From an uncultured Clostridia bacterium (GTDB lineage: Bacteria > Bacillota > Clostridia > TANB77 > CAG-508), in the NCBI GenBank assembly GCA_947629045.1, contig CANRCF010000001.1, forward strand, positions 72,078 to 136,077: 64,000 nucleotides of DNA, given 5' to 3'. Of this stretch, positions 7,653 through 62,834 are shown piece after piece. Every line of letters begins with the position of its first letter. Position 1 is the stretch's first letter. Below the pieces are notes generated by a model. It saw nothing but the letters and a program-made list of their open reading frames with translations. It ran no database searches and had not been told where the DNA came from. The position numbers were made by a program, and so were the translations under genes.

Positions 7653-7987
7653 ATATTCTGTTTCTCGGCATACAGTCATCTTTATCTATTTATAATTATA
7701 TAAAATATAAGTTATGCAATCCTATTGCAGCAAAAAATTTCTACCGTAAATATGATGAAACAATTAAAATATTAGAAAATTTTCCTTTTGCCTATCCTGA
7801 ATTAAAAGATACAAATTTTAGATATCTTGTTTTAAATCAATGGATTGTTTTATATGAAATTCAAAATTATCTTATTATCATTCATTTTGTATTACACTCT
7901 AGACAAAATTTCCATAAAAGTAATTCTGACTTGTCCCAAGTACCCCAAAAATGGGAAAGTGGACCTGGTCCCTTTACTGCTTCTTAA
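7633..7987 (+). pseudogene. ParE/RelE-like toxin remnant (frameshifted)
   Basis: From GTG 7633: VNCYQIKYSVSRHTVIFIYL then a stop. The next frame continues ...SIYNYIKYKLCNPIAAKNFYRKYDETIKILENFPFAYPEL...IIIHFVLHSRQNF, which is ParE-like. That frame has no canonical start and runs on through the repeat at 7925..7972. Confidence 0.5.
7925..7972. repeat. Copy A of a ~50-nt intergenic repeat (second copy at 52984..53035)
   Basis: TCTGACTTGTCCCAAGTACCCCAAAAATGGGAAAGTGGACCTGGTCCC versus TCTGACTGACCTGTCCCTTTTACCCCAAAAATGGGGAATTGGACCTGGTCCC. Confidence 0.6.
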
Positions 7988-8360
7988 TTTTAGGTTTTGC
8001 TAGAAGTGATGCTAGATAGCCAAAAAATACTGCTGCTGCAATTCCACCAGCTGAGGCTTTAACCCCGCCTGTAAATGCTCCAAGAAGACCTGCTGTTTTT
8101 ACTTCCTGCATAGCACCTTTTGCAAGGTTAGCACCAAAGCCAAGTAATGGTACAGTGGCTCCTGCTCCTGCAAAATCAATTAAATATTTATAAATTCCAA
8201 GTCCTCCTAAAATAGCACCAGTTGTTACAAATATAACTAAAATTCTTGCAGGTGTAAGTTTCGTTTTGTCAATTAGAATTTGTCCTATTATACATATTAT
8301 TCCACCTACTACAAAACATTTTAAGATTCCCATCCAATCTATACTTTGTATAAAATCCAT
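7974..8360 (-). CDS. spoVAE: Stage V sporulation protein AE (SpoVAEB-type)
   Basis: 128-aa membrane protein, ...VVGGIICIIGQILID...GAGATVPLLGFGANLAKG..., last gene of a spoVAC-AD-AE run. Confidence 0.85.
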   Translation of the reverse strand: MDFIQSIDWMGILKCFVVGGIICIIGQILIDKTKLTPARILVIFVTTGAILGGLGIYKYLIDFAGAGATVPLLGFGANLAKGAMQEVKTAGLLGAFTGGVKASAGGIAAAVFFGYLASLLAKPKIKKQ

Positions 8361-19817: not shown

Positions 19818-19847
19818 TTGACTTTTTTAAATAAAAAAGAGTATAAT
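19818..19847 (+). promoter_or_regulatory. Sigma-A-type promoter driving the tandem-repeat RNA
   Basis: TTGACT (19818..19823), 18-nt spacer, TATAAT (19842..19847). Confidence 0.5.
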
Positions 19848-19886: not shown

Positions 19887-19982
19887 AAAATGTGAACCGC
19901 AACCCTATTTGCGAAATATAAATTTATAGGTGAGAAAATGTGAACCGCAACCCTGCTTGCGAGATATAAATGCGCAGGTGAA
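19887..19982 (+). repeat. Two tandem 48-nt repeats, each able to fold as an H-type pseudoknot (candidate structured RNA)
   Basis: Unit 1 is 19887..19934 and unit 2 is 19935..19982, with 8 differences. Stem 1 is CGCAA/TTGCG. The loop CCTAT pairs with ATAGG in unit 1 and becomes CCTGC pairing with GCAGG in unit 2, which is two compensatory base-pair changes. A perfect 12-bp helix (19877..19888 / 19989..20000) encloses both units. Confidence 0.7.
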
Positions 19983-20054
19983 AAAATGTTAATTATAGTA
20001 AAATGTGGGGTCTAAAAAATTAGATCCCATAGTTTGTTCCGATATCTACTAAAT

Positions 20055-20436: not shown

Positions 20437-20703
20437 TTGAAAAGAAATGTATCAATAGAAGAACGTGCTGTTAATTTAGCACAATATATTATAGATAGCA
20501 AAGATACTGTTAGAGGAGCTGCCAAGAAGTTTGGTGTTAGTAAAAGTACTGTTCACAAAGATGTAAGTGAAAGATTACTTAAGATAAATCCCATTTTAGC
20601 TCATGAGGTTAGGCAAATATTAGATGAAAACAAAGCTGAAAGACACATAAGAGGAGGCCTTGCTACAAAAATGAAGTATAGCCATCATGAGGAGGCTATA
20701 TAA
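20437..20703 (+). CDS. spoIIID: Stage III sporulation protein D (mother-cell transcription regulator)
   Basis: ...IEERAVNLAQYIIDSKDTVRGAAKKFGVSKSTVHKDVSERL...AERHIRGGLATKMKY. TTG start with GGGGG upstream. Confidence 0.9.
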   Translation: MKRNVSIEERAVNLAQYIIDSKDTVRGAAKKFGVSKSTVHKDVSERLLKINPILAHEVRQILDENKAERHIRGGLATKMKYSHHEEAI

Positions 20704-30454: not shown

Positions 30455-30536
30455 TTGCCTTCTCCTTTTCTTCTTAGGTTTCTCAAATTTTCTCATTTAC
30501 TTTTTTCTTCTGTTTTTTACTCTATAACATTTTGTC

Positions 30537-40830: not shown

Positions 40831-42078
40831 CTATTTAACAATTAATTCTACTGCTTTTAGTACACCTAATTTTCCATATTCATAAGTTAAACCGCCTTGT
40901 AAAAATGCAACATAAGGCTCTCTTACTGGTGCATCACATGAAAGTTCAATAGACGAACCTTGTGTAAATGTTCCTGCTGCCATTATTACTTGGTCTGTAT
41001 AGCCTGGCATATCTGATGGCTCTGGCACTGAGTTACTATCAATTGGAGAACCCATTTGAATTCCTTGGCAAAATTTAATTAGCTTTTCTCTATCATGGAA
41101 TATAATAGTTTGAACTATGTCGCTTCTTTTTGCATCATATTTTGGTTTTGCTTCATAACCTAAATTTTCTAATAACTTACTTGCAAATACAGCTGTTTTT
41201 AAGCTACTTGCAACAACACTTGGTGCAAAAAATAGTCCTTGTAAAAATTGTTTATTTATTCCTAGTGTAGGTCCTTCTTCTTTTCCTATTCCTGGTGAAG
41301 TTAATCTTTCTGCTGCTAGCTTTACTAATTCCTTTTTGCCTGCAATGTATGCACCATTTGGTGCAATTCCTCCACCTAAATTTTTAATTAGAGAACCTAC
41401 TATTACATCTGCACCAATATTTGTTGGCTCTATTCTATCTACCATTTCGCCATAGCAATTATCTACCATTATAATTACTTCATCATTTACTTCTCTAATT
41501 GTTTTTATTACTTTTTCCATCTTTTCTAAGCTAATGCTATCTCTTAAACTATATCCTCTTGAACGTTGTATCTCAATTAACTTAACGTTTTTCTTTGCTA
41601 CTCTTTCTTTTATTTTTTCATAGTCAAAATCTTCATCTATCAAATCAATTTGCTCATATTTTACTTGATGAGCTTTTAATGAACTTGGATTATCTACAAT
41701 TCCTATTACTTCGTCTAGTGTATCATATGGCTTTCCACATATACTAAGTAAAGTATCTCCTGGTCTTAGAAAAGCAAATAGTGCTACTGTTAAAGCATGT
41801 GTTCCAGAAATAAATTGACTTCTTACTAAGCTATCTTCTGTATGCAAAATTTCTGAATATACCTCTTCTATAACATCTCTTCCTATGTCACTATAACCAT
41901 AGCCTGTTGTGGTATTAAAATGAATATCTGAAACATGATATTTTTGAAAAGCATTTAATACTTTTAAACTATTATACTCACATATTTCATCTATTTTTTT
42001 AAATTCTTCTTGTACTTCTTTTTCTGCTGTTTCAGCCATTTTTATTACTTCATCACTTATTCCAAATTGCTTGTACAT
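40831..42078 (-). CDS. Methionine gamma-lyase-family PLP protein (aluminium resistance protein, YnbB-like)
   Basis: ...NSLKVLNAFQKYHVSDIHFNTTTGYGYSDIGRDVIEEVY... is typical of the family. Confidence 0.8.
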   Translation of the reverse strand: MYKQFGISDEVIKMAETAEKEVQEEFKKIDEICEYNSLKVLNAFQKYHVSDIHFNTTTGYGYSDIGRDVIEEVYSEILHTEDSLVRSQFISGTHALTVALFAFLRPGDTLLSICGKPYDTLDEVIGIVDNPSSLKAHQVKYEQIDLIDEDFDYEKIKERVAKKNVKLIEIQRSRGYSLRDSISLEKMEKVIKTIREVNDEVIIMVDNCYGEMVDRIEPTNIGADVIVGSLIKNLGGGIAPNGAYIAGKKELVKLAAERLTSPGIGKEEGPTLGINKQFLQGLFFAPSVVASSLKTAVFASKLLENLGYEAKPKYDAKRSDIVQTIIFHDREKLIKFCQGIQMGSPIDSNSVPEPSDMPGYTDQVIMAAGTFTQGSSIELSCDAPVREPYVAFLQGGLTYEYGKLGVLKAVELIVK

Positions 42079-42112
42079 TGTTTTTTTCCTCTCTTCTATT
42101 ACATATTATTAA

Positions 42113-42261
42113 AATATAGTAGTTTTAAGCAACACCGCGCAGCGTTCAAACGGAACGAAGTGAAGTGCGCTTGGAGCAGTCTACTTATATTGTGTAATAA
42201 ATCGTTAAATTTATTACACAATAAGACTGCGACAGCAAGGTGTAAGTAAAGCTACTATATT
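42113..42261 (-). repeat. Structured repeat, copy 1 (110-nt conserved core 42133..42242 inside a copy-specific outer stem)
   Basis: The core CACCGCGCAGCGTTCAAACGGAACGAAGTGAAGTGCGCTTGGAGCAGTCT...AGACTGCGACAGCAAGGTG recurs at 45506..45617. Outer stem is ATATAGTAG / CTACTATAT. Minus orientation is suggested by changes that remain G-U pairs only in the minus-strand transcript. Confidence 0.75.
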
Positions 42262-42273
42262 TTATATAACAAG

Positions 42274-44031
42274 TTATAATGACAAATTATCGCTATATCT
42301 TGTTTCACCAGCCCAAGTGTTTATGCGGTAATATTTTCCTAAAAAGCTTGGTTGTAGCCAGTCTAATTCATATATTGGATTTTCTACAATATTTCCAAGT
42401 TTGTCTATTATTCCCCATTTGCCATCTTTTTTTATTCCTGCATATCCATATTCATTTAAATCAGTTACCATATCATACTCAGCTGATATAACTTCATTTC
42501 CAGCTCTATCTACAAATCCCCATTTATCACCTATTTTTTGTGCTAACAACATATTAGATGGGAAAATGTTTCTCGCTTCTAATTCATTTCCTTGAATATC
42601 ATAATATTTTAACTCATCATTTGATGATAGCATAATATATTCTTGTGAATTTGTTTTTGACTCTTTATACTGAGCAATCATTGCACCATCCATACTTGCT
42701 ACTTTTTGCATTTGTAAGTTATATAAATCAATAGTCTTTGTTTCTGAAATTTCTGCTTGAATTAAATTTGTATCATTAAATTTAAAAATACTTGTATATT
42801 TAAGTTCTACTGCGAAATTTCCATAACTATCTATAATTCCGTTTTTTCCGTCTCGTGCAACTATAAAATAATTTCCTGGCAAGTCTTCCATATATGTGTA
42901 ATTATCGTCTAATATTGTCCTTCCATTTGCATCTACAAGTTTATATATATCATTTTTGTCAGTCGCAATATAATAATTTGGATTATCTGTCTCAGTCATA
43001 CTTATATTTTCCGTTTGTATTCTAACACCTTTTGCATCAAATATAAACGTTTCATCGTCTCTTATTGCATTTAAGTAGATACCACCAAATAAAATTTTAT
43101 CATATTCTGGTCTTATTATAGTCTCACCTGTCCTAGTTACAATTCCTTTTTTTCCATTTCTTTGAGCAATAAATATGTCATGTTGTGCATTATATTCAAA
43201 ATCCTCATATTCATAATTTAAAATAACTTCATTATTTTTTAAAAGACCTGCTTGTCCATTTTTGAAAGCTATAAAGTATATATCATTTTCACTAGGTATT
43301 TGTGTTACTCTTTCAAGCTCTGTGTATTCTGTATCAAGTATTATATCTCCTCTATAATTTATATAGCCATATCTATAGCCTTCTTCTGTTTTTTTACTTA
43401 CAATAAAGCCTGTTGTTTTATTATAAGTAGTTTCATTATAATAATTATCAGAAGTGATAGTTTCATATTCACTATTAATAATAACTTTTCCCTTCATGTT
43501 TACAACGCCATATTTTTCATCCTGCTTTACTAAAAAACTTCCTTCTTTATAGTTTATACTACTAATTTCATCATATATTGGTTTTGTAATTTTTTTACCA
43601 TCTAAACTAATAATTCCATACTTTCCATCTTCTTTATATGTAAGTACACTCTTTTCGTAAGGATTTGTTTCAATATTTGTTTGAACTGGAATTGCTTGTA
43701 CATTTTTATAGTTTTCTAAAATTATCTCTTTTTTTTCATTATATACTACTGTTTCATAATCTTTAGAATCTTGATTATAAGAATTTACACAAATAAATAC
43801 TGGTTTCGATGGGTTAGGAATTTGTACAGCTATATAGTTTGGCTCTATTATTACATTAGCATCTTTATCAATTACGCCATACTTTTCGCCTTCTATAAGT
43901 ACAAAATAATTATATTCTTTTATTTGTTCAACTGTATATTGTAATTGAGATTCATTGATTATAATTATAGTTAAAATTACTGCTACTACTAATATAATAG
44001 CTAATACAATCCATTTTATTTTTCCCTTCAT
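42274..44031 (-). CDS. WG-repeat (KWG) protein with N-terminal membrane anchor
   Basis: 585 aa with many (D/E)GK(Y/W)G(I/V)(I/V)(D/N)xxG units. Confidence 0.8.
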   Translation of the reverse strand: MKGKIKWIVLAIILVVAVILTIIIINESQLQYTVEQIKEYNYFVLIEGEKYGVIDKDANVIIEPNYIAVQIPNPSKPVFICVNSYNQDSKDYETVVYNEKKEIILENYKNVQAIPVQTNIETNPYEKSVLTYKEDGKYGIISLDGKKITKPIYDEISSINYKEGSFLVKQDEKYGVVNMKGKVIINSEYETITSDNYYNETTYNKTTGFIVSKKTEEGYRYGYINYRGDIILDTEYTELERVTQIPSENDIYFIAFKNGQAGLLKNNEVILNYEYEDFEYNAQHDIFIAQRNGKKGIVTRTGETIIRPEYDKILFGGIYLNAIRDDETFIFDAKGVRIQTENISMTETDNPNYYIATDKNDIYKLVDANGRTILDDNYTYMEDLPGNYFIVARDGKNGIIDSYGNFAVELKYTSIFKFNDTNLIQAEISETKTIDLYNLQMQKVASMDGAMIAQYKESKTNSQEYIMLSSNDELKYYDIQGNELEARNIFPSNMLLAQKIGDKWGFVDRAGNEVISAEYDMVTDLNEYGYAGIKKDGKWGIIDKLGNIVENPIYELDWLQPSFLGKYYRINTWAGETRYSDNLSL

Positions 44032-44050
44032 ACCTTTACCTCTTTCTTAT

Positions 44051-45367
44051 TTATTCTTCTTCATCTTGTATTTCTTCCTTCTTCTTTTTGCACACTTTAA
44101 CCCACTTAATTCTTTTATCTTCATATTCTTCAATTTGGTAAATTAAATTTTCATCCTCTATAACTGGGTATTCTGCTTCTTCTGGAAGTCTTCCTAACTT
44201 TTCAATTATATAACCTGATAGAGTTTCATAGTCTCCTTCTGGAAGTTCTACATCTAATATTTTTTTAAGTTCATACAAACTCATACTTCCTTCTAACAAA
44301 TAGGTGTCATCATCTAATTTTTGATATTCAACTTCTACGTCATCATATTCATCAAAAATGTTTCCAACTAATTCTTCTAAGATATCTTCCATTGTTAGAA
44401 TTCCTGCTGTTCCGCCGTATTCATCTACAACTATTGCCATTTGCATTTTATTTTTTTGTAACTCTTTAAATATTTCATCTATCGGCTTTGATTCTGGAAC
44501 AAAATATGCCTCTTTAATCATATCTTTTATTTTTATATTTTCTTTTCTACTTACTGCAACTAAAATATCTTTTACAAATAAAATACCTTTAATATTATCT
44601 ATTGTTTCTTCATATACTGGTATTCTACTATATTTGTAGTTATCTATCTCCTCTAATAATTCATATAAGTCTTGATTTATTTCAATTGCATACATTTCTG
44701 TACGGTGAGTCATAATTTCAGATGCTACTATGTCATTTAAGGCAAATACATTATTTATAAGCTCTTTTTCAGTTTCTTCAATTGAGCCATTTTCTTCACC
44801 TTGGTCCACCATCATTTTTATTTCTTCTTCTGTTACAACTTCTTCATCTTGCTCACTAACGCCAAAAATTTTTGAGACAATATTCGTTGAGAAAGTTAGA
44901 AGCTTTACAAATGGTGCTGTTAGAATAGATATTCCTCTTATAACCCCTACTGTACCAAATGAAATTTTTTCATAATATTTCATTGCTAGTCTTTTTGGAA
45001 CTAACTCTCCAAATACTAATGTGAAGAAGGATAGAATTAGAGTAATTATTACTATTGAAATATCCTGCCAAACTGAAACACTTAAAAATGGCATCCATGT
45101 AGCTAAAATTGGAGCTAACTTATCTGCAAAAACATCTGATGCAAAAGCACTTGATAAAAATCCTGCTAGAGTAATTCCTATTTGAATTGTTGATAAAAAT
45201 TTGCTTGGATTTCTTAACATTTTTTGAATTAATTTTGCTTTCTTATTTCCTTCCTTTACTTGCTTTTCTATTTTCGCATCATTTAAAGAAATAAAAGCAA
45301 TTTCTGTTGCAGCAAAATAGGCATTCAGTAGAATTAAAATTGCTAAAAATATTAGCTGTATAATCAT
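44051..45367 (-). CDS. Hemolysin/CNNM-family protein (DUF21 membrane domain + CBS pair + CorC_HlyC)
   Basis: 438 aa. N-terminal four-helix DUF21, then ...MTHRTEMYAI...IPVYEETIDNIKGILFVKD...VVDEYGGTAGILTMEDILEELVG. Confidence 0.85.
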   Translation of the reverse strand: MIIQLIFLAILILLNAYFAATEIAFISLNDAKIEKQVKEGNKKAKLIQKMLRNPSKFLSTIQIGITLAGFLSSAFASDVFADKLAPILATWMPFLSVSVWQDISIVIITLILSFFTLVFGELVPKRLAMKYYEKISFGTVGVIRGISILTAPFVKLLTFSTNIVSKIFGVSEQDEEVVTEEEIKMMVDQGEENGSIEETEKELINNVFALNDIVASEIMTHRTEMYAIEINQDLYELLEEIDNYKYSRIPVYEETIDNIKGILFVKDILVAVSRKENIKIKDMIKEAYFVPESKPIDEIFKELQKNKMQMAIVVDEYGGTAGILTMEDILEELVGNIFDEYDDVEVEYQKLDDDTYLLEGSMSLYELKKILDVELPEGDYETLSGYIIEKLGRLPEEAEYPVIEDENLIYQIEEYEDKRIKWVKVCKKKKEEIQDEEE

Positions 45368-45479
45368 GTTTTTTTCACTTTCTCCTTATATTTTTCTTGA
45401 CATATTTTTCTAGTATTTATTATATATTCTATCGGTTCCTATGTCAATAAATAGAGTTATTTTTTTATCTATATAATTT

Positions 45480-45642
45480 AAAGTTGAAGTATTACGTTTT
45501 GCATGCACCGCGCAGCGTCCAAACGGAACGAAGTGAAGTGCGCTTGGAGCAGTCTACTTATACTGTTTAATAAATTGTTAAATTTATTAAACAATATAAG
45601 ACTGCGACAGCAAGGTGCAAAAAAACATAATACTTCAACTTT
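45480..45642 (-). repeat. Structured repeat, copy 2 (core 45506..45617 inside a different outer stem)
   Basis: Same core as copy 1, with 5 substitutions and one 2-nt indel. Outer stem AAAGTTGAAGTATTA / TAATACTTCAACTTT (15 bp) is unrelated in sequence to the outer stem of copy 1. Confidence 0.75.
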
Positions 45643-45692
45643 TATTATAACTATAAAAAAATTTATATTATAGAATAGTTAAATAATTTGAT

Positions 45693-48389
45693 TTAGAAGC
45701 CTGTTCTTGGAAGTTTCTTTTTAACTTCTACACTTTTATTTTCAATAGTAATTCCTACTGTTTTTAAGTTTTGATTTATTTCAATTTCATATTTATTTGT
45801 ATTTAACACATAATATTTAGAACCAGTGTCTTTTTCTTTTATATAATATTTTCCATATTCTAATAATTTACTTGTAGCCTTGCCATCTTCTTTTGTAGTA
45901 ATTGTATCTACTAGTTCATCTTTTTCATTATATATTTCAAATATTGCGCCTTTAAGTGCTGTGCCCTTTTTTTCATTAGTTATGCTATTATCATCAGCGC
46001 TTACTTTTGTAATTTCAATGTAACCTTTAATTTTTTCGTTTGCAAAGTTTAGGGTTGTAATTTGGTTTTCTTCTAATACTACTGTTTTTTCTTCATCACT
46101 TAGTACATAATTTTCTAAGGTTTTTGTTTCTTTTATAGTATATTTTTGGTCAATTGGTAATTTTTTTGTTACAGCTTCTCCATTTTGATCTGTTACTAAT
46201 GATTCTACAAGGTTACCTGCTTCGTCATATACTTCAAATTCAACGCCTTCTAGTTTTATTTCGTTATTATCTTTATCAACTTTTATTACTTTTATTTGAC
46301 CTTTTTTCTTTTCATTTTTAAATACTAAATTTGTTATTTCGCCTTGCTTTAATACTACTGTTTGTGCATTTTGGTCTAATACATACCACTTTCCAGTTTT
46401 AGTTTCCTTTACTTTGTATTCTTGTCCTAATGGTAGTTTTTTGCTTATAGCTTCTCCGTTTTTATCAGTTATTAAAGTATCAACTACTTCTCCATTTTGA
46501 TCATATATTTTAAATTCAACATCTGGCAATTTTACTTCGTTATTGTCTGCATCTATTTTTATTACTTTAATTTGGCCTTTTTTAACTTCGTTTTCAAAAA
46601 CTACACTACTTATTTGATTTTCTTTTAAAGTAACAGTTTTAGGAGCTTCGTCTAATACATAGTTTTCTAACGTTTTTGTTTCTTGAAGGGTTAATTTTGA
46701 AAAATCTCTTACTGCATATTTTTTTGTTAATGCTTCACCATTTTTATCTGTTTTTATTGTTTCTAGAATGTTTCCTTTTTCATCAATTACATTAAATTCT
46801 ACATCTTTTAATTTTATTTCTTTATTTTCTTTATCAACTTTTATTACTTTAATTTGTCCTTTTTTAAGCTCGTTTTCTATTTTTGTTTCTACAGTTTCGT
46901 TTTCTTTTACTGTTACTAAAGTTTTTGTGTCATTTAATTTGTACCATTTATTTGTGCTTTTTTCTAGCCAGCTATAATTGCCTACTCTTAAGTTTTCTAC
47001 TAAAATTTCTCCGTCTGCGTTTGTGTAATATGTTCCTATTACCTTACCTTTTTCTTCTGAATATAAGTCAAATTCTACATTTCCAAGTGTTATTTGGTTA
47101 TTATCTTTGTCAACTTTAATAAGCTTTAAATTGCCGGTTTTTCTAGTATTTTCAAAAGTTACTCTTGCTACACCATTATACTCTAATTCTACTTTTTTTA
47201 CTTCATCTGATAAAATATAATTTTCATTTGCTTCTATTTCTTTTACATCATATATTCCAGGGTATAGATTTTCTATTGTAGCTTTTCCACTTTCATCTGT
47301 TTTTACTGTTGTAACTACACTTCCGTCTTTGCTAATTTCTAAAGTAGTATTTGAAACTGGCTCTTTTGTGTCTTTATCTATCTTCATTATTTCCATTTTT
47401 GAATTATTGGTTTTAAGTTCAAATGTAGTAGATGTGCTTAGTTCTTCATAAGGATTTGCAACTACTACATAATCTTGGTAATCTGGATTTTCTGCCTTAG
47501 CAAAAAAGGCTGGATAAGTTTTTATTTGTGCTTTATTTATTTTAACATTTATTCTTACATCTTGCATTATACTGCTTTTAGGGATTTTTACTGATATTGT
47601 TGTGCCATTTTTTGTGTAAGTAGCAGCTTTAAAGCCTTCAATTAAAACTTCGTAATTTCCAATTTCTTTATTTGAATTTAATTTAAAATCCTGTACTAAA
47701 TTATTTCCATTACTATATATTGAACCGCTTTTTTCTAATGATATTGTTGCTGTTTCATAATTATCTTTACTGGTTGTAGCATAATTATATAGTTTTTCTG
47801 CTGCATCTAAAATTTTCTTTCCTCTTCTTTGAACATCCTCTAATGTAAGGCCTAATTTTTTATCAGAATTTGCGATATGTGTAGGTACTTCATATTTTGT
47901 CTTTGGTGATACTGCTTGTTTTTCATTTAAACAATGAATAACTAATTTAGTTACAAAATACCAATCATCATCACTTTCTACAACTGGTCCTGATTTCATC
48001 TCTTTATTGTCAGTATCAGATGTAGTTGTTTCATTCCACTTTTTGCCAAAATAGCCATGATACAAAGCTCTCCATACCCTTGCATCATCTATCTCTTTTG
48101 TTATTTCTGTTAAATAGTTATCTCCTCCACCTGTTCCAACGCCTGGGTCTAATGGTTCTAAGCAAAATGCTTCTAATCTTTCTCCATTTTTATCTTGATA
48201 ATATACTCTATATACTAATTTCAATGAACTGTCTGACTTGTACTGAACAAAGCCTGGAAGTTCTCTTTCTGCATATAATCTTGTTTTATCTCCTAATTTT
48301 ACTGTGTATGCTGTTACTATTGGACTTAAAGTATTTATAAGCATTATTAGCGCTAGTAACATATAAATACCTTTTTTAATTGTTTTCAT
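45693..48389 (-). CDS. Surface adhesin: signal peptide, thioester-type N-terminal domain, seven or more Cna-B/SpaA-type repeats, LPRTG motif (sorting signal truncated)
   Basis: 898 aa. EAFCLEP and VWRALYHGYFG thioester-domain motifs. Repeated KKGQIKVIKVDKDNNE...GVEFE(V/I)YD units. The ORF ends ...KKKLPRTGF then stop, with no hydrophobic or charged tail. Confidence 0.85.
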   Translation of the reverse strand: MKTIKKGIYMLLALIMLINTLSPIVTAYTVKLGDKTRLYAERELPGFVQYKSDSSLKLVYRVYYQDKNGERLEAFCLEPLDPGVGTGGGDNYLTEITKEIDDARVWRALYHGYFGKKWNETTTSDTDNKEMKSGPVVESDDDWYFVTKLVIHCLNEKQAVSPKTKYEVPTHIANSDKKLGLTLEDVQRRGKKILDAAEKLYNYATTSKDNYETATISLEKSGSIYSNGNNLVQDFKLNSNKEIGNYEVLIEGFKAATYTKNGTTISVKIPKSSIMQDVRINVKINKAQIKTYPAFFAKAENPDYQDYVVVANPYEELSTSTTFELKTNNSKMEIMKIDKDTKEPVSNTTLEISKDGSVVTTVKTDESGKATIENLYPGIYDVKEIEANENYILSDEVKKVELEYNGVARVTFENTRKTGNLKLIKVDKDNNQITLGNVEFDLYSEEKGKVIGTYYTNADGEILVENLRVGNYSWLEKSTNKWYKLNDTKTLVTVKENETVETKIENELKKGQIKVIKVDKENKEIKLKDVEFNVIDEKGNILETIKTDKNGEALTKKYAVRDFSKLTLQETKTLENYVLDEAPKTVTLKENQISSVVFENEVKKGQIKVIKIDADNNEVKLPDVEFKIYDQNGEVVDTLITDKNGEAISKKLPLGQEYKVKETKTGKWYVLDQNAQTVVLKQGEITNLVFKNEKKKGQIKVIKVDKDNNEIKLEGVEFEVYDEAGNLVESLVTDQNGEAVTKKLPIDQKYTIKETKTLENYVLSDEEKTVVLEENQITTLNFANEKIKGYIEITKVSADDNSITNEKKGTALKGAIFEIYNEKDELVDTITTKEDGKATSKLLEYGKYYIKEKDTGSKYYVLNTNKYEIEINQNLKTVGITIENKSVEVKKKLPRTGF

Positions 48390-52983: not shown

Positions 52984-53035
52984 TCTGACTGACCTGTCCC
53001 TTTTACCCCAAAAATGGGGAATTGGACCTGGTCCC
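52984..53035. repeat. Copy B of the ~50-nt repeat (first copy at 7925..7972)
   Basis: See copy A. This copy overlaps the last 11 codons and the stop of the trmB ORF. Confidence 0.6.
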
Positions 53036-53692
53036 AATAAGTGCTTTAATTTTTATTCCTTGCTCGCTAAACATTTTTTCATGCTCTGTTTCAATGTTTT
53101 CAAAACTATCCCAAAAGTTTTCTTCATTTTTTAAGTCTCTTGTTATCTTTTCTATTTTAAATCCAGTATTTTCAAAATAGTGTATACTTTCTTCAAATAA
53201 ATTACTGTCATCTGTTTTAAAATATATTTTTCCTTCTGGCTTTAAAAATTCTTTGTAGTGTTCAAGTTGCCTTGTATATGTAAGTCTTTTTTTGTGATGC
53301 TTCCCTCTTGGCCATGGGTTACAAAAGTTAATATATATTCCATCTACTGCATCTTGTTCAGATAATATTAGTAAAATTCTTTCTATATCAAATCTAGTTA
53401 AAATTACATTGTCTATTTCTTTTTTTGCTTCTTTGTAAACTTCTTCTACCTTTCTTTTTGCTAAGCCTAACATAGGATCAACTAAGTCTATTGCTATATA
53501 ATTGTTTTCTGGATGTTTTAGAGCCATTTGTGATATAAATGCTCCTTTTCCACATCCTAATTCTACAAATAATGGATTTTCTGGTCTTGCAAATTCTTTT
53601 CTCCATTTTCCTTTTATTTCTTCTGGATGCTCTCTATAAAAAGCACTTTCTTCTAGTTCTTTTCTTGCCCATGGTTTATACCTTATTCTCAT
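53003..53692 (-). CDS. trmB: tRNA (guanine-N7)-methyltransferase
   Basis: MRIRYKPWARKEL...FVELGCGKGAFI...NFCNPWPRGKHHKKRL... The C-terminal ...GTRSNSPFLG is encoded by the repeat. Confidence 0.9.
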   Translation of the reverse strand: MRIRYKPWARKELEESAFYREHPEEIKGKWRKEFARPENPLFVELGCGKGAFISQMALKHPENNYIAIDLVDPMLGLAKRKVEEVYKEAKKEIDNVILTRFDIERILLILSEQDAVDGIYINFCNPWPRGKHHKKRLTYTRQLEHYKEFLKPEGKIYFKTDDSNLFEESIHYFENTGFKIEKITRDLKNEENFWDSFENIETEHEKMFSEQGIKIKALIGTRSNSPFLG

Positions 53693-61650: not shown

Positions 61651-61779
61651 ATATCGAATTCATCCTCTCTTGTTTTTTAAGTTTTCACTATTTATCTTTT
61701 GCTTTTTTTGTTATTTTATACTTAATTTTTACTAGCACAAATTACCAATTTTTTAAAATGTTTAATACAATTTATATTT

Positions 61780-61925
61780 GTTTGATAAAAATAGTTCTTA
61801 TTTGTAGTGAGGCTGTGGGGACCAACGAGTTATAGACTGTTATAAAATTTTACAAAGTAAAATTTTATTTACAGGCTATTACGAAGCAGGGATGGAACGG
61901 AAAATAAGAACTATTTTTATCAAAC
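61780..61925. repeat. Hairpin-in-hairpin element: perfect 24-bp outer stem enclosing a G+C-richer core and an AT-rich inner hairpin
   Basis: GTTTGATAAAAATAGTTCTTATTT (61780..61803) pairs perfectly with AAATAAGAACTATTTTTATCAAAC (61902..61925). Inner hairpin is TAGACTGTTATAAAATTTTAC / GTAAAATTTTATTTACAGGCTA. Confidence 0.6.
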
Positions 61926-61928
61926 TAA

Positions 61929-62834
61929 TTAATCCGTAGATTTAAACTTTTTAACAAATTCTTCTTGGTTAATCCAGTCTTCTCTTACTTTTACCCATAA
62001 TTTTAGATTAACTTGTTCTTCTAAAGTTTTTTCTAAATCTTGTCTTGCATAAGTTCCAATTCGTTTTAGCATACTTCCATCTTTTCCAATTATAATACCT
62101 TTGTGCGAATTTTTTATGCAATATATTGTTGCTTCAATGTTAAATATTGGCTTATTTTCTCTTGTTTTGCCTTTTTTCATTTTATCTACTTCTACAAAAA
62201 TTCCGTGTGGCACTTCGTCTTGCAATAGTTTTAATGCTTTTTCGCGAATTGTCTCTGATGCTATGTCTCTTAATGTTTGGTCTGTATATTCTTCTTTACT
62301 ATAATATGCTGGTCCTTCTTTTAAGTTCTTCTCTATTTCTTCTAAAATAATTTCAGCATCTGGCTTTTTTATCGTTGAAATAGGTATTATAGCTTTAAAA
62401 TTATATTCATCTTTGAAGGCTTCAATTAAATTAAAAATATGCTCTTTTTTTACTAAATCTATTTTGTTTATGATTAAAATTGTATTTGTCTTTGCTTCTT
62501 TTATTTTATCTAAAATCATTTTGTCGCCTTTGCCTATTCCTTCTGATGTGGCTTCTACAACAAATAATATAACATCTGCATCTGGAATACTGCCCCATGC
62601 AGTGTCATTCATTGCTATGCTAAGTTTTGATTTTGGTTTATGAATTCCTGGCGTATCTAAGAATATAATTTGTGAGTTTTCTCTATTTACAATTGCTTTA
62701 ATCATAGTTCTTGTAGTTTGTGGTTTGTCTACAACCACTGCTACCTTTTGACCTACTATTTTGTTTAGAATACTAGATTTTCCTACATTTGTTCTTCCTA
62801 CAATTGCTACAAAACCTGATTTAAAATTCTCCAT
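61929..62834 (-). CDS. era: GTPase Era
   Basis: MENFKSGFVAIVGRTNVGKSS...DTPG...NKID... plus a KH domain. ATG at 62834 is preceded by AAAGGGAG. Confidence 0.95.
   Translation of the reverse strand: MENFKSGFVAIVGRTNVGKSSILNKIVGQKVAVVVDKPQTTRTMIKAIVNRENSQIIFLDTPGIHKPKSKLSIAMNDTAWGSIPDADVILFVVEATSEGIGKGDKMILDKIKEAKTNTILIINKIDLVKKEHIFNLIEAFKDEYNFKAIIPISTIKKPDAEIILEEIEKNLKEGPAYYSKEEYTDQTLRDIASETIREKALKLLQDEVPHGIFVEVDKMKKGKTRENKPIFNIEATIYCIKNSHKGIIIGKDGSMLKRIGTYARQDLEKTLEEQVNLKLWVKVREDWINQEEFVKKFKSTD

Follow-up and report, generated by a model that had tools for sequence, protein, structure and literature searches.

Genomic setting of the repeat

The 64,000-nt stretch of DNA analyzed here (hereafter the window), part of contig CANRCF010000001.1 from an uncultured Clostridia bacterium, contains two copies of a palindromic repeat in its intergenic spacers, against which sequence collections and fetched loci (designated by L-numbers) were compared. 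The window DNA is chromosomal and AT-rich (27-29% G+C), from a spore-forming member of the Clostridia, with domain matches including spoVA, spo0A, sipL and yunB, and nearly all of its genes lie on the minus strand, which is also the G-rich and presumably the leading strand. Copy 1 lies between the stop of a WG-repeat gene (42274) and the start of a methionine-gamma-lyase-like gene (42078), and copy 2 between the stop of a SpaA-domain surface-protein gene (45693) and the promoter of a CNNM/CorC transporter gene. Sister species conserve this promoter, a perfect TTGACA-17-TATAAT on the minus strand at 45419..45447, which is outside the element; as it lies downstream of copy 2, that copy is not in the leader of the CNNM gene. 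The genes adjoining the copies described below are housekeeping genes that are functionally unrelated to each other (methionine gamma-lyase-like, CNNM transporter, ABC transporter and grpE-dnaK).

The conserved core and its folding

A first-pass annotation of the sequence had described a repeated core of 110 nt with compensatory changes, and the observation itself was confirmed. The core of copy 1 (about 110 nt; 42133..42242) and that of copy 2 (45506..45617) differ, as claimed, by five substitutions (T>C, T>C, G>T, C>T, C>A) and one 2-nt indel, corresponding to 93.8% identity over the aligned core. Both the 19-mer AGACTGCGACAGCAAGGTG and a 32-mer of the core occur exactly twice in the 64 kb, where shuffled sequences give an expectation of zero.

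The helices proposed in the annotation, GCGCA/TGCGC and CGTTC/GAACG, were recovered, together with GCAGTCT/AGACTGC and a 14-bp AT hairpin, and the core is predicted to fold into a three-way junction with a side hairpin, a long central hairpin, and conserved junction sequences CTTGCTGTCG and CTCCAA. The closing helix of copy 1 is formed by CACC (42133-36) and GGTG (42239-42), extended by TTG (42171-73) and CAA (42236-38). Its side hairpin pairs GCGCA (42137-41) with TGCGC (42166-70) and encloses CGTTC (42143-47) paired with GAACG (42153-57), and its central hairpin consists of GCAGTCT (42176-82) and AGACTGC (42224-30), topped by the 14-bp AT stem (42189-42202 with 42209-42222). The conserved unpaired segments are AAGTGAAG, GA and GACAG, and the junction motif CTTGCTGTCG is read on the minus strand at 42230..42239, with its second occurrence at 45605-45614.

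Copy 2 has the same helices, with C.A mismatches on the plus strand in CGTCC/GAACG and ACTG/CAAT, and with a compensated T-A pair in the AT hairpin. The compensatory change noted in the annotation, G-C in copy 1 to T-A in copy 2 (alignment columns 71/94), is thus real; it is a paired transversion, and finding two of the five substitutions complementarily at partner positions has a rough p of ~0.01. A 149-nt unit folds at -59.3 kcal/mol on the plus strand (z = -8.4 against shuffles) and at -51.5 kcal/mol on the minus strand (z = -7.4), and folding z-scores range overall from -4.6 to -9.7.

Further copies and a diverged relative

A scan for the 19-mer in contigs representing one genome per species returned two true relatives (L001 and L003) and two chance matches. 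The same 19-mer gave one chance match only in metagenome contigs, two patterns gave chance matches only in viral contigs, and the chance matches in these collections were in G+C-rich DNA. Both relatives come from a single metagenome-assembled genome (MAG) of the rabbit gut, "uncultured Clostridia bacterium Lapin-021__bin51" (CANRNR01), and their cores are 85-87% identical to the window cores. L001 has degenerate arms. In L027, a 97%-identical orthologue of the L003 locus, nothing beyond the first half of the element survives. The break falls within the AT hairpin and bases of the conserved end/motif have changed; this is a decaying copy. Other assemblies from the rabbit gut that represent the species of the window (L012, L025) contain identical copies, and copy 1 is present in all sampled contigs of this species. 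When ~0.25-0.4 Mb of DNA fetched from related loci was searched by nhmmer and with a covariance model, no more copies of the core family emerged, and the diverged relative described next scored only 9.3 bits.

This relative, L029 (13641-13791), belongs to the window's own species and was found by a scan for perfect long-range inverted repeats. It occupies the grpE-dnaK spacer, ~0.8 kb beyond window position 1; identical-protein look-ups for this site returned the window's own species only. The AT-rich arms of L029 are of the same type and pair perfectly over 19 bp, and its junction decamer CTTGCTGTCG is identical, being the only long sequence common to it and the core family. CTCCAA stands on the other side of a wholly different central hairpin, and a side hairpin is absent. 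The decamer has two matches in the window, both in the copies, where 0.02 would be expected, and across the fetched Clostridia loci it was found at one mismatch or fewer only inside elements, save for one near-match in a coding sequence. Beside this fixed anchor, the closing helix is GTGTC/GACAC in L029 and CACC/GGTG in the window copies, a difference of three to four compensatory double changes. The pairing of the closing helix and arms was therefore kept while their sequences drifted. This could result from selection on the hairpin, as DNA or as RNA, or from arm-to-arm templated correction.

Two observations were made at loci related to that of L003. At L026 (2650-2706), compared with L003 (7128-7330), a 99%-identical ABC-transporter orthologue is followed directly by another gene with no element, and a rearrangement breakpoint on this short contig falls exactly at the stop codon adjoining the element's site. 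At L028 (309-1686), from a related species, a bAvd gene is paired with one for a reverse transcriptase, as is typical of diversity-generating retroelements; the ABC-transporter locus is ~10 kb away.

Outer arms and extent of the unit

Each core is enclosed by a long AT-rich stem. The whole palindromic unit of copy 1, arms and core, spans 42110..42264 on the minus strand, that is, with the CTTGCTGTCG end 5' and co-directional with the neighbouring genes. Its arm TAAAATATAGTAGTTTTA (42110..42127) pairs with the opposite arm TAAAGCTACTATATTTTA (42247..42264) over 18 nt with 94% complementarity. In copy 2 the arm AAAGTTGAAGTATTACGTTTT (45480..45500) pairs with AAAACATAATACTTCAACTTT (45622..45642) over 21 nt with 95% complementarity, and a further, less perfect outer layer (45459-45477 with 45644-45662; 19 nt, 84%) brings the whole unit to 45459..45662, again on the minus strand.

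The annotation had placed each copy inside a different outer stem. The stems do exist and are longer than it stated; they are not unrelated, as the arms resemble each other between copies. The flanks of copy 1 resemble those of L003, the flanks of copy 2 those of L001, and the flanks of L001 those of L003 (p = 0.008 or lower against shuffles). The five sense-side arms, including that of the diverged L029, share a loose consensus, roughly TTATAWTAAAATATTATKGTTTTTTG, and their mean pairwise score of 13.2 compares with 9.4 +/- 0.9 for AT-rich 38-mers of the window and was reached by none of 400 random sets. Because this relationship exceeds chance, the arms are degenerate versions of one AT-rich terminal inverted repeat of the element, and the unit measures ~153-205 bp rather than 110 nt.

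These dimensions correspond to those of miniature inverted-repeat transposable elements (MITEs), which measure less than ~300-500 bp. The unit is small (~153-205 bp) and non-coding: none of the frames that run open across copy 1 has an ATG, and the copies differ in frame owing to the 2-nt indel, leaving no conserved frame for a small open reading frame (ORF) or a type I toxin, both of which we rejected. Terminal inverted repeats are common to the copies, with arms of 18-21 nt (19 bp in L029) and 94-100% complementarity, and their degeneracy between copies is much greater than in classical MITEs.

A second family of the same build

Another palindromic unit of similar architecture lies in the window at 61776-61929, with 28-nt arms (96% complementary) around a 98-nt core, and its homologue was found in a different species at L022 (21007-21169), where perfect 23-bp arms are unrelated in sequence to those of the window unit. 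In the core of this look-alike family a 5' segment, GYAGTGA.GGCTGTGGGGACCA, and a 3' segment, AGCWGGGRTGGAACGGA, are conserved, whereas the central hairpin differs and is still paired. Homology between this core and that of copies 1 and 2 was rejected (p = 0.3-0.4 by local alignment), the sole likeness being a short resemblance of CGAAGCAGGGATGG to CGACAGCAAGGTG.

Filled and empty sites

Orthologous loci were fetched by means of the lyase-like protein, yielding sister lineages at 93% (L015/L016), 83% (L018) and 81% (L019-L024) protein identity. In three sister lineages the gene order is kept and the element is absent at both window sites, corresponding to the presence/absence pattern at orthologous positions that is expected of a MITE. 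At site 1 the sister spacers measure 38, 23 and 10 nt, compared with 195 nt in the window, and at site 2 the conserved promoter aligns in the sisters and the element with its arms is missing. The spacer difference of 157 nt approximates the whole 153-nt palindrome (42111-42263) and not the 110-nt core, and the outer stem of copy 1 therefore arrived with the insertion. This comparison indicates that, once the lineage had separated from its sister species, short intergenic spacers received the whole unit, including its arms. The look-alike unit in L022 is likewise absent from the orthologous spacer between peptidase M23 and M50 genes, which is 40 nt long in the window (30497-30536) and 92 nt in L018, compared with 220 nt in L022.

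The same comparison bears on a suggestion of the annotation, namely insertion into pre-existing hairpins. In this model a mobile core of 110 nt would target hairpin loops, those of terminators or of some older palindromic repeat. Such targeting would account for the abrupt switch between copies 1 and 2, from 94% identity in the core to chance level in the arms, and for the palindrome that brackets each full copy. However, the sister spacers at site 1, at 10-38 nt, are too short to hold a hairpin and contain none, and the size difference, here as in L022, equals arms plus core. "Empty" arms were sought in ~0.25 Mb of non-redundant, fetched related DNA, where only short AT-rich chance matches were found. 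The arms are moreover unlike the ordinary G+C-rich terminator of the clade, as seen for example in L028, and are common to L029, whose core differs. We thus consider insertion into existing hairpins very unlikely.

Strand and orientation

The view preferred in the annotation was that of a functional structured RNA transcribed from the gene (minus) strand. Such an RNA would act either in cis in polycistronic transcripts (as a terminator or attenuator, an RNase III-type processing stem or a stability element) or as a small RNA released from the long flanking stem, with arms selected for pairing only and the core for its sequence. The argument of the annotation was that two substitutions in copy 2, which give C.A on the plus strand, remain paired as G.U on the minus strand. 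The substitutions are real; the strand that was read from them does not hold once further copies are included, since most one-sided changes in L001 and L003 give G.U pairs on the plus strand (GCGCA/TGCGT, GCGTA/TGCGC, CGTTC/GAGCG and the closing helix). Standard pairs fill 96.3% of the helix cells on the plus strand and ~92% on the minus strand (the latter by our count), and the minimum free energies (MFEs) of individual copies favour the plus strand in copy 1 and L003, the minus strand in copy 2, and neither in L001. Any transition in a Watson-Crick pair wobbles on one strand or the other, so a DNA palindrome that changes neutrally is predicted to give just such a mixture. A covariation test on the core family had no statistical power, its single double change being matched or exceeded in 220 of 500 shuffles.

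The annotation also pointed to co-orientation with the flanking genes, which proved to be real and more general than two copies. All six copies that lie between co-directional genes (copy 1, copy 2, L003, L029 and the look-alikes at 61776-61929 and in L022) share one orientation, with the CTTGCTGTCG-type end in the 5' position when the sense strand is read (two-sided p ~0.03). In the seventh copy, L001, which is also the most degenerate, the neighbouring genes diverge and both of their promoters lie downstream of the element. This pattern would be consistent with a functional RNA, as would the decay of the only copy outside a co-directional unit, the closing helix that covaries between subfamilies, the conserved and unpaired junction sequences, the perfect or nearly perfect arms of ~20 bp or more and the low folding z-scores. 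However, it is ambiguous as evidence for RNA, since gene strand and leading strand coincide here and the bias could reflect either selection at the level of transcription or strand-specific mobilisation. An RNA would also have to be reconciled with wobble changes and MFEs that disagree on the strand, core-family covariation without power, absence of the element from the orthologous sites of sister species, functionally unrelated neighbour genes, and the position of copy 2 and L001 upstream of the next gene's promoter. As for the terminator form, a scan of 41800-46000 detected no canonical intrinsic (Rho-independent) terminator, the arms being AT-rich and followed by T runs of at most 4 nt. On balance, a functional RNA from the gene strand appears unlikely, if still a credible alternative.

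Fixed orientation relative to the leading strand would also be consistent with a substrate of a single-strand (HUH/Y1-type) transposase, REP/BIME-like or derived from IS200/IS605, in which a folded hairpin is recognised on one DNA strand at the replication fork; this proposal overlaps with that of a mobile repeat developed below. It would agree with the lack of a visible target duplication, the greater conservation of the internal folded part than of the termini, and the maintained integrity of the hairpin, whereas the ends lack the similar subterminal hairpins typical of IS200/IS605 and the unit is far longer than a REP, AT-rich, and without a GTAG-type 5' tetranucleotide at the foot of the stem. 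No Y1 transposase was seen among the 35 window ORFs scanned or annotated, and the Rfam models of IS605-associated RNAs gave no match in the window. A REP/BIME identity in the strict sense was rejected for the size of the unit (150-200 nt), its AT-rich arms and its occurrence at two copies in 64 kb, in addition to the lack of a Y1 transposase among these window ORFs. Mobilisation of this specific type seems quite improbable.

Searches against known families

The annotation could assign the repeat to no known RNA family, and this holds: no Rfam family reached its gathering score anywhere in the 64-kb window, and at E-value thresholds (E<=10) the three element regions gave only generic hairpin matches to miRNA models, at 10-19 bits. 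Searches of the unit by blastn against plasmids and phages returned only chance matches to the AT hairpin, searches of protein space with a six-frame concatenate and with the 56-aa ATG ORF of copy 2 gave no matches, and no mention of the motif sequences was found in the literature. The two copies thus belong to a strongly folding repeat family that is in no collection searched.

Other identities were considered and rejected. Integron attC sites consist of R''/L''...L'/R' boxes (RYYYAAC...GTTRRRY) and occur in a cassette array with an integrase; here the ends are GTTTT...AAAAC, with the boxes in the opposite arrangement, and what separates the copies is a syntenic set of housekeeping genes that relatives possess even where they lack the element. 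A Dif/Xer site was also rejected, as were a K-turn at the GA-rich internal loop, which does not fit the consensus sequence, and a promoter inside the element, whose hexamers are not conserved between copies.

The Rfam result extends to the ribosomal protein operons of the window. Both rplM-rpsI and infC-rpmI-rplT are present, and such operons often carry known leaders. With no family at gathering score in positions 1-64000, these leaders are either absent or too diverged in this lineage.

Nature of the element

The repetition of the core beyond chance, the empty sites in sister lineages, the related arms, the pairing kept between diverged copies, the decay of L027 and L001 and the unrelated gene contexts all point to a mobile repeat. 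The absence of a strand preference in wobble changes and MFEs is as expected for a DNA palindrome, and these genomes also harbour a second family of the same build, for which orthologous sites are again empty. We therefore consider that copies 1 and 2 probably represent a new, low-copy family of non-autonomous palindromic intergenic elements, MITE-like and of the bcr1/ERIC type, hosted by a clade of uncultured, spore-forming, AT-rich (~28% G+C) Clostridia of the rabbit gut. The evidence does not show a new functional RNA, and an RNA-level effect is a possible consequence of insertion.

Such an element would be moved in trans by an enzyme encoded elsewhere. Whole units have entered short spacers, including those inside operon-like gene pairs such as grpE-dnaK and WG-repeat/lyase. 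Three features depart from a textbook MITE, namely the lack of a visible target duplication, termini less conserved among close copies than the internal junction, and fixed orientation, and they lean towards recognition of a folded single strand. Fixed orientation without a recognisable target duplication, in particular, would place the process closer to a strand-specific mechanism acting on a folded single strand than to cut-and-paste of a DDE-type MITE. Within each copy, hairpin selection or arm-to-arm templated correction may keep the arms complementary. Read-through transcripts would then carry a hairpin with a stem of 20 bp or more, which could attenuate transcription or serve as a processing or stability site, as a side effect of insertion.

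Several observations weigh against a mobile repeat of this kind. Between copies 1 and 2 the similarity of the arms is at chance level (score 9.0; null 9.1) despite cores that are 94% identical, a combination that copy-and-paste of whole units does not predict and that requires the assumption of gene conversion; conversion between the homologous cores, 3.4 kb apart, would most simply explain it. Among close copies the best-conserved sequence is internal and not terminal, unlike in textbook MITEs. No consistent direct repeat was found at the palindrome ends of copy 1, copy 2, L003 and L029, where AT-rich flanks make short repeats uninformative. Neither a transposase or recombinase domain nor an autonomous partner element was seen among the 35 window ORFs scanned or annotated, with ~13 larger ORFs at 53-64 kb unscanned. 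A function at the RNA level could likewise account for the orientation bias and for the covariation of the closing helix. The family is represented by no more than four complete copies, a truncated one and a single diverged relative.

A more far-reaching interpretation would unite the main family and the look-alike family (61776-61929 and L022) in an undescribed class of oriented, hairpin-embedded modules of gut Clostridia in which the internal folded junction, and not the termini, is recognised and selected. These modules might move as folded single strands by a mechanism that itself keeps the arms complementary. Alternatively, they might be small RNAs that are cut from operon transcripts at the long stems on either side, in the way that RNase III frees rRNA. 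We regard this class as a rather unlikely proposition. If strict orientation, two or more families of the same build and conservation of the internal junction were borne out, mobilisation of the classical DDE MITE type would not explain them, and the combination would imply either a strand-specific route of mobilisation in Firmicutes or RNA modules that spread between operons.

If the copies do belong to a non-autonomous palindromic family, they would add one more lineage-specific family to the palindromic repeats of bacteria, useful for the annotation of MAGs from this clade and for strain typing. They also call for caution, as palindromic repeats can mimic a structured RNA with compensatory changes.

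Other repeats in the window

Two further repeats were observed in the window. On the plus strand, positions 19887-19982 hold two tandem 48-nt units, each with a hairpin CGCAA...TTGCG whose loop, CCCTAT in the first unit and CCCTGC in the second, can pair with a downstream ATAGG or GCAGG, respectively, so that the difference between units is compensatory. This arrangement suggests tandem H-type pseudoknots in a small transcript or leader, with no Rfam match even at E<=5. A promoter-like site lies at 19818-19847, a hairpin near 20007-20030, and a spoIIID-like gene follows at 20437.

A 67-nt repeat with 82% identity occurs at 7926-8001 and 52989-53064, at the 3' ends of two minus-strand genes, one spoVAEB-like (7974-8360) and the other at 53003-53692. 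It contains the G+C-rich palindromes GGACCAGGTCC and CCCATTTTTGGGG and could represent either a terminator module common to the two genes or a further family of small repeats.

Comparison with known systems

A conserved insert between palindrome halves gives a superficial likeness to elements that target hairpins, including IS1397 and ISKpn1 in REP loops, IS110/IS1111 members in REP or attC sequences, and class C group II introns beside terminators. However, the empty orthologous sites here contain no palindrome, and the element is non-coding and only 110-200 nt long. Like REP/BIME sequences with RAYT transposases and palindrome-associated elements derived from IS200/IS605, our elements would be recognised through a folded hairpin and not through terminal repeats, show no visible target duplication and have a strand or orientation bias. 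REPs, however, are G+C-rich hairpins of 20-40 nt with a conserved 5' tetranucleotide and hundreds of copies, whereas here no RAYT or TnpA gene was seen in the window and the two ends are not similar hairpins.

ERIC/IRU and other MITE-like palindromes of enterobacteria, as well as RUP and SPRITE of Streptococcus pneumoniae and the Correia elements, are, like ours, imperfect intergenic palindromes of 100-170 bp, often at the 3' ends of genes and in operons. When co-transcribed, palindromes of the ERIC/IRU type form long RNA hairpins and can affect mRNA stability or termination (PMC3184786). These families number from tens to hundreds of copies, with conserved termini and duplication of a target such as TA. 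In the Clostridia elements, by contrast, close copies differ most at their termini, no duplication can be seen, and a single orientation is found between co-directional genes.

The bcr1 repeat of the Bacillus cereus group (Okstad 2004; Klevan 2007) is ~155 bp long and cruciform-like with two stem-loops, and it shows compensatory changes and a distribution that is not conserved between strains (PMC3184786). No sequence similarity to it was detected, as judged indirectly from blastn against plasmids, which gave no Bacillus match, and not against the bcr1 consensus. Direct repeats of 5 bp, of the bcr1 type, are not definable here; the arms of our elements are much longer and AT-rich, and few copies have been seen so far. 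Nevertheless, bcr1 and the repeat described here have in common a Firmicute host, a size of ~155 bp, an intergenic location with a non-conserved distribution between relatives, and a predicted cruciform-like fold of two independent stem-loops inside a closing stem, with compensatory changes and some copies that have lost stability.

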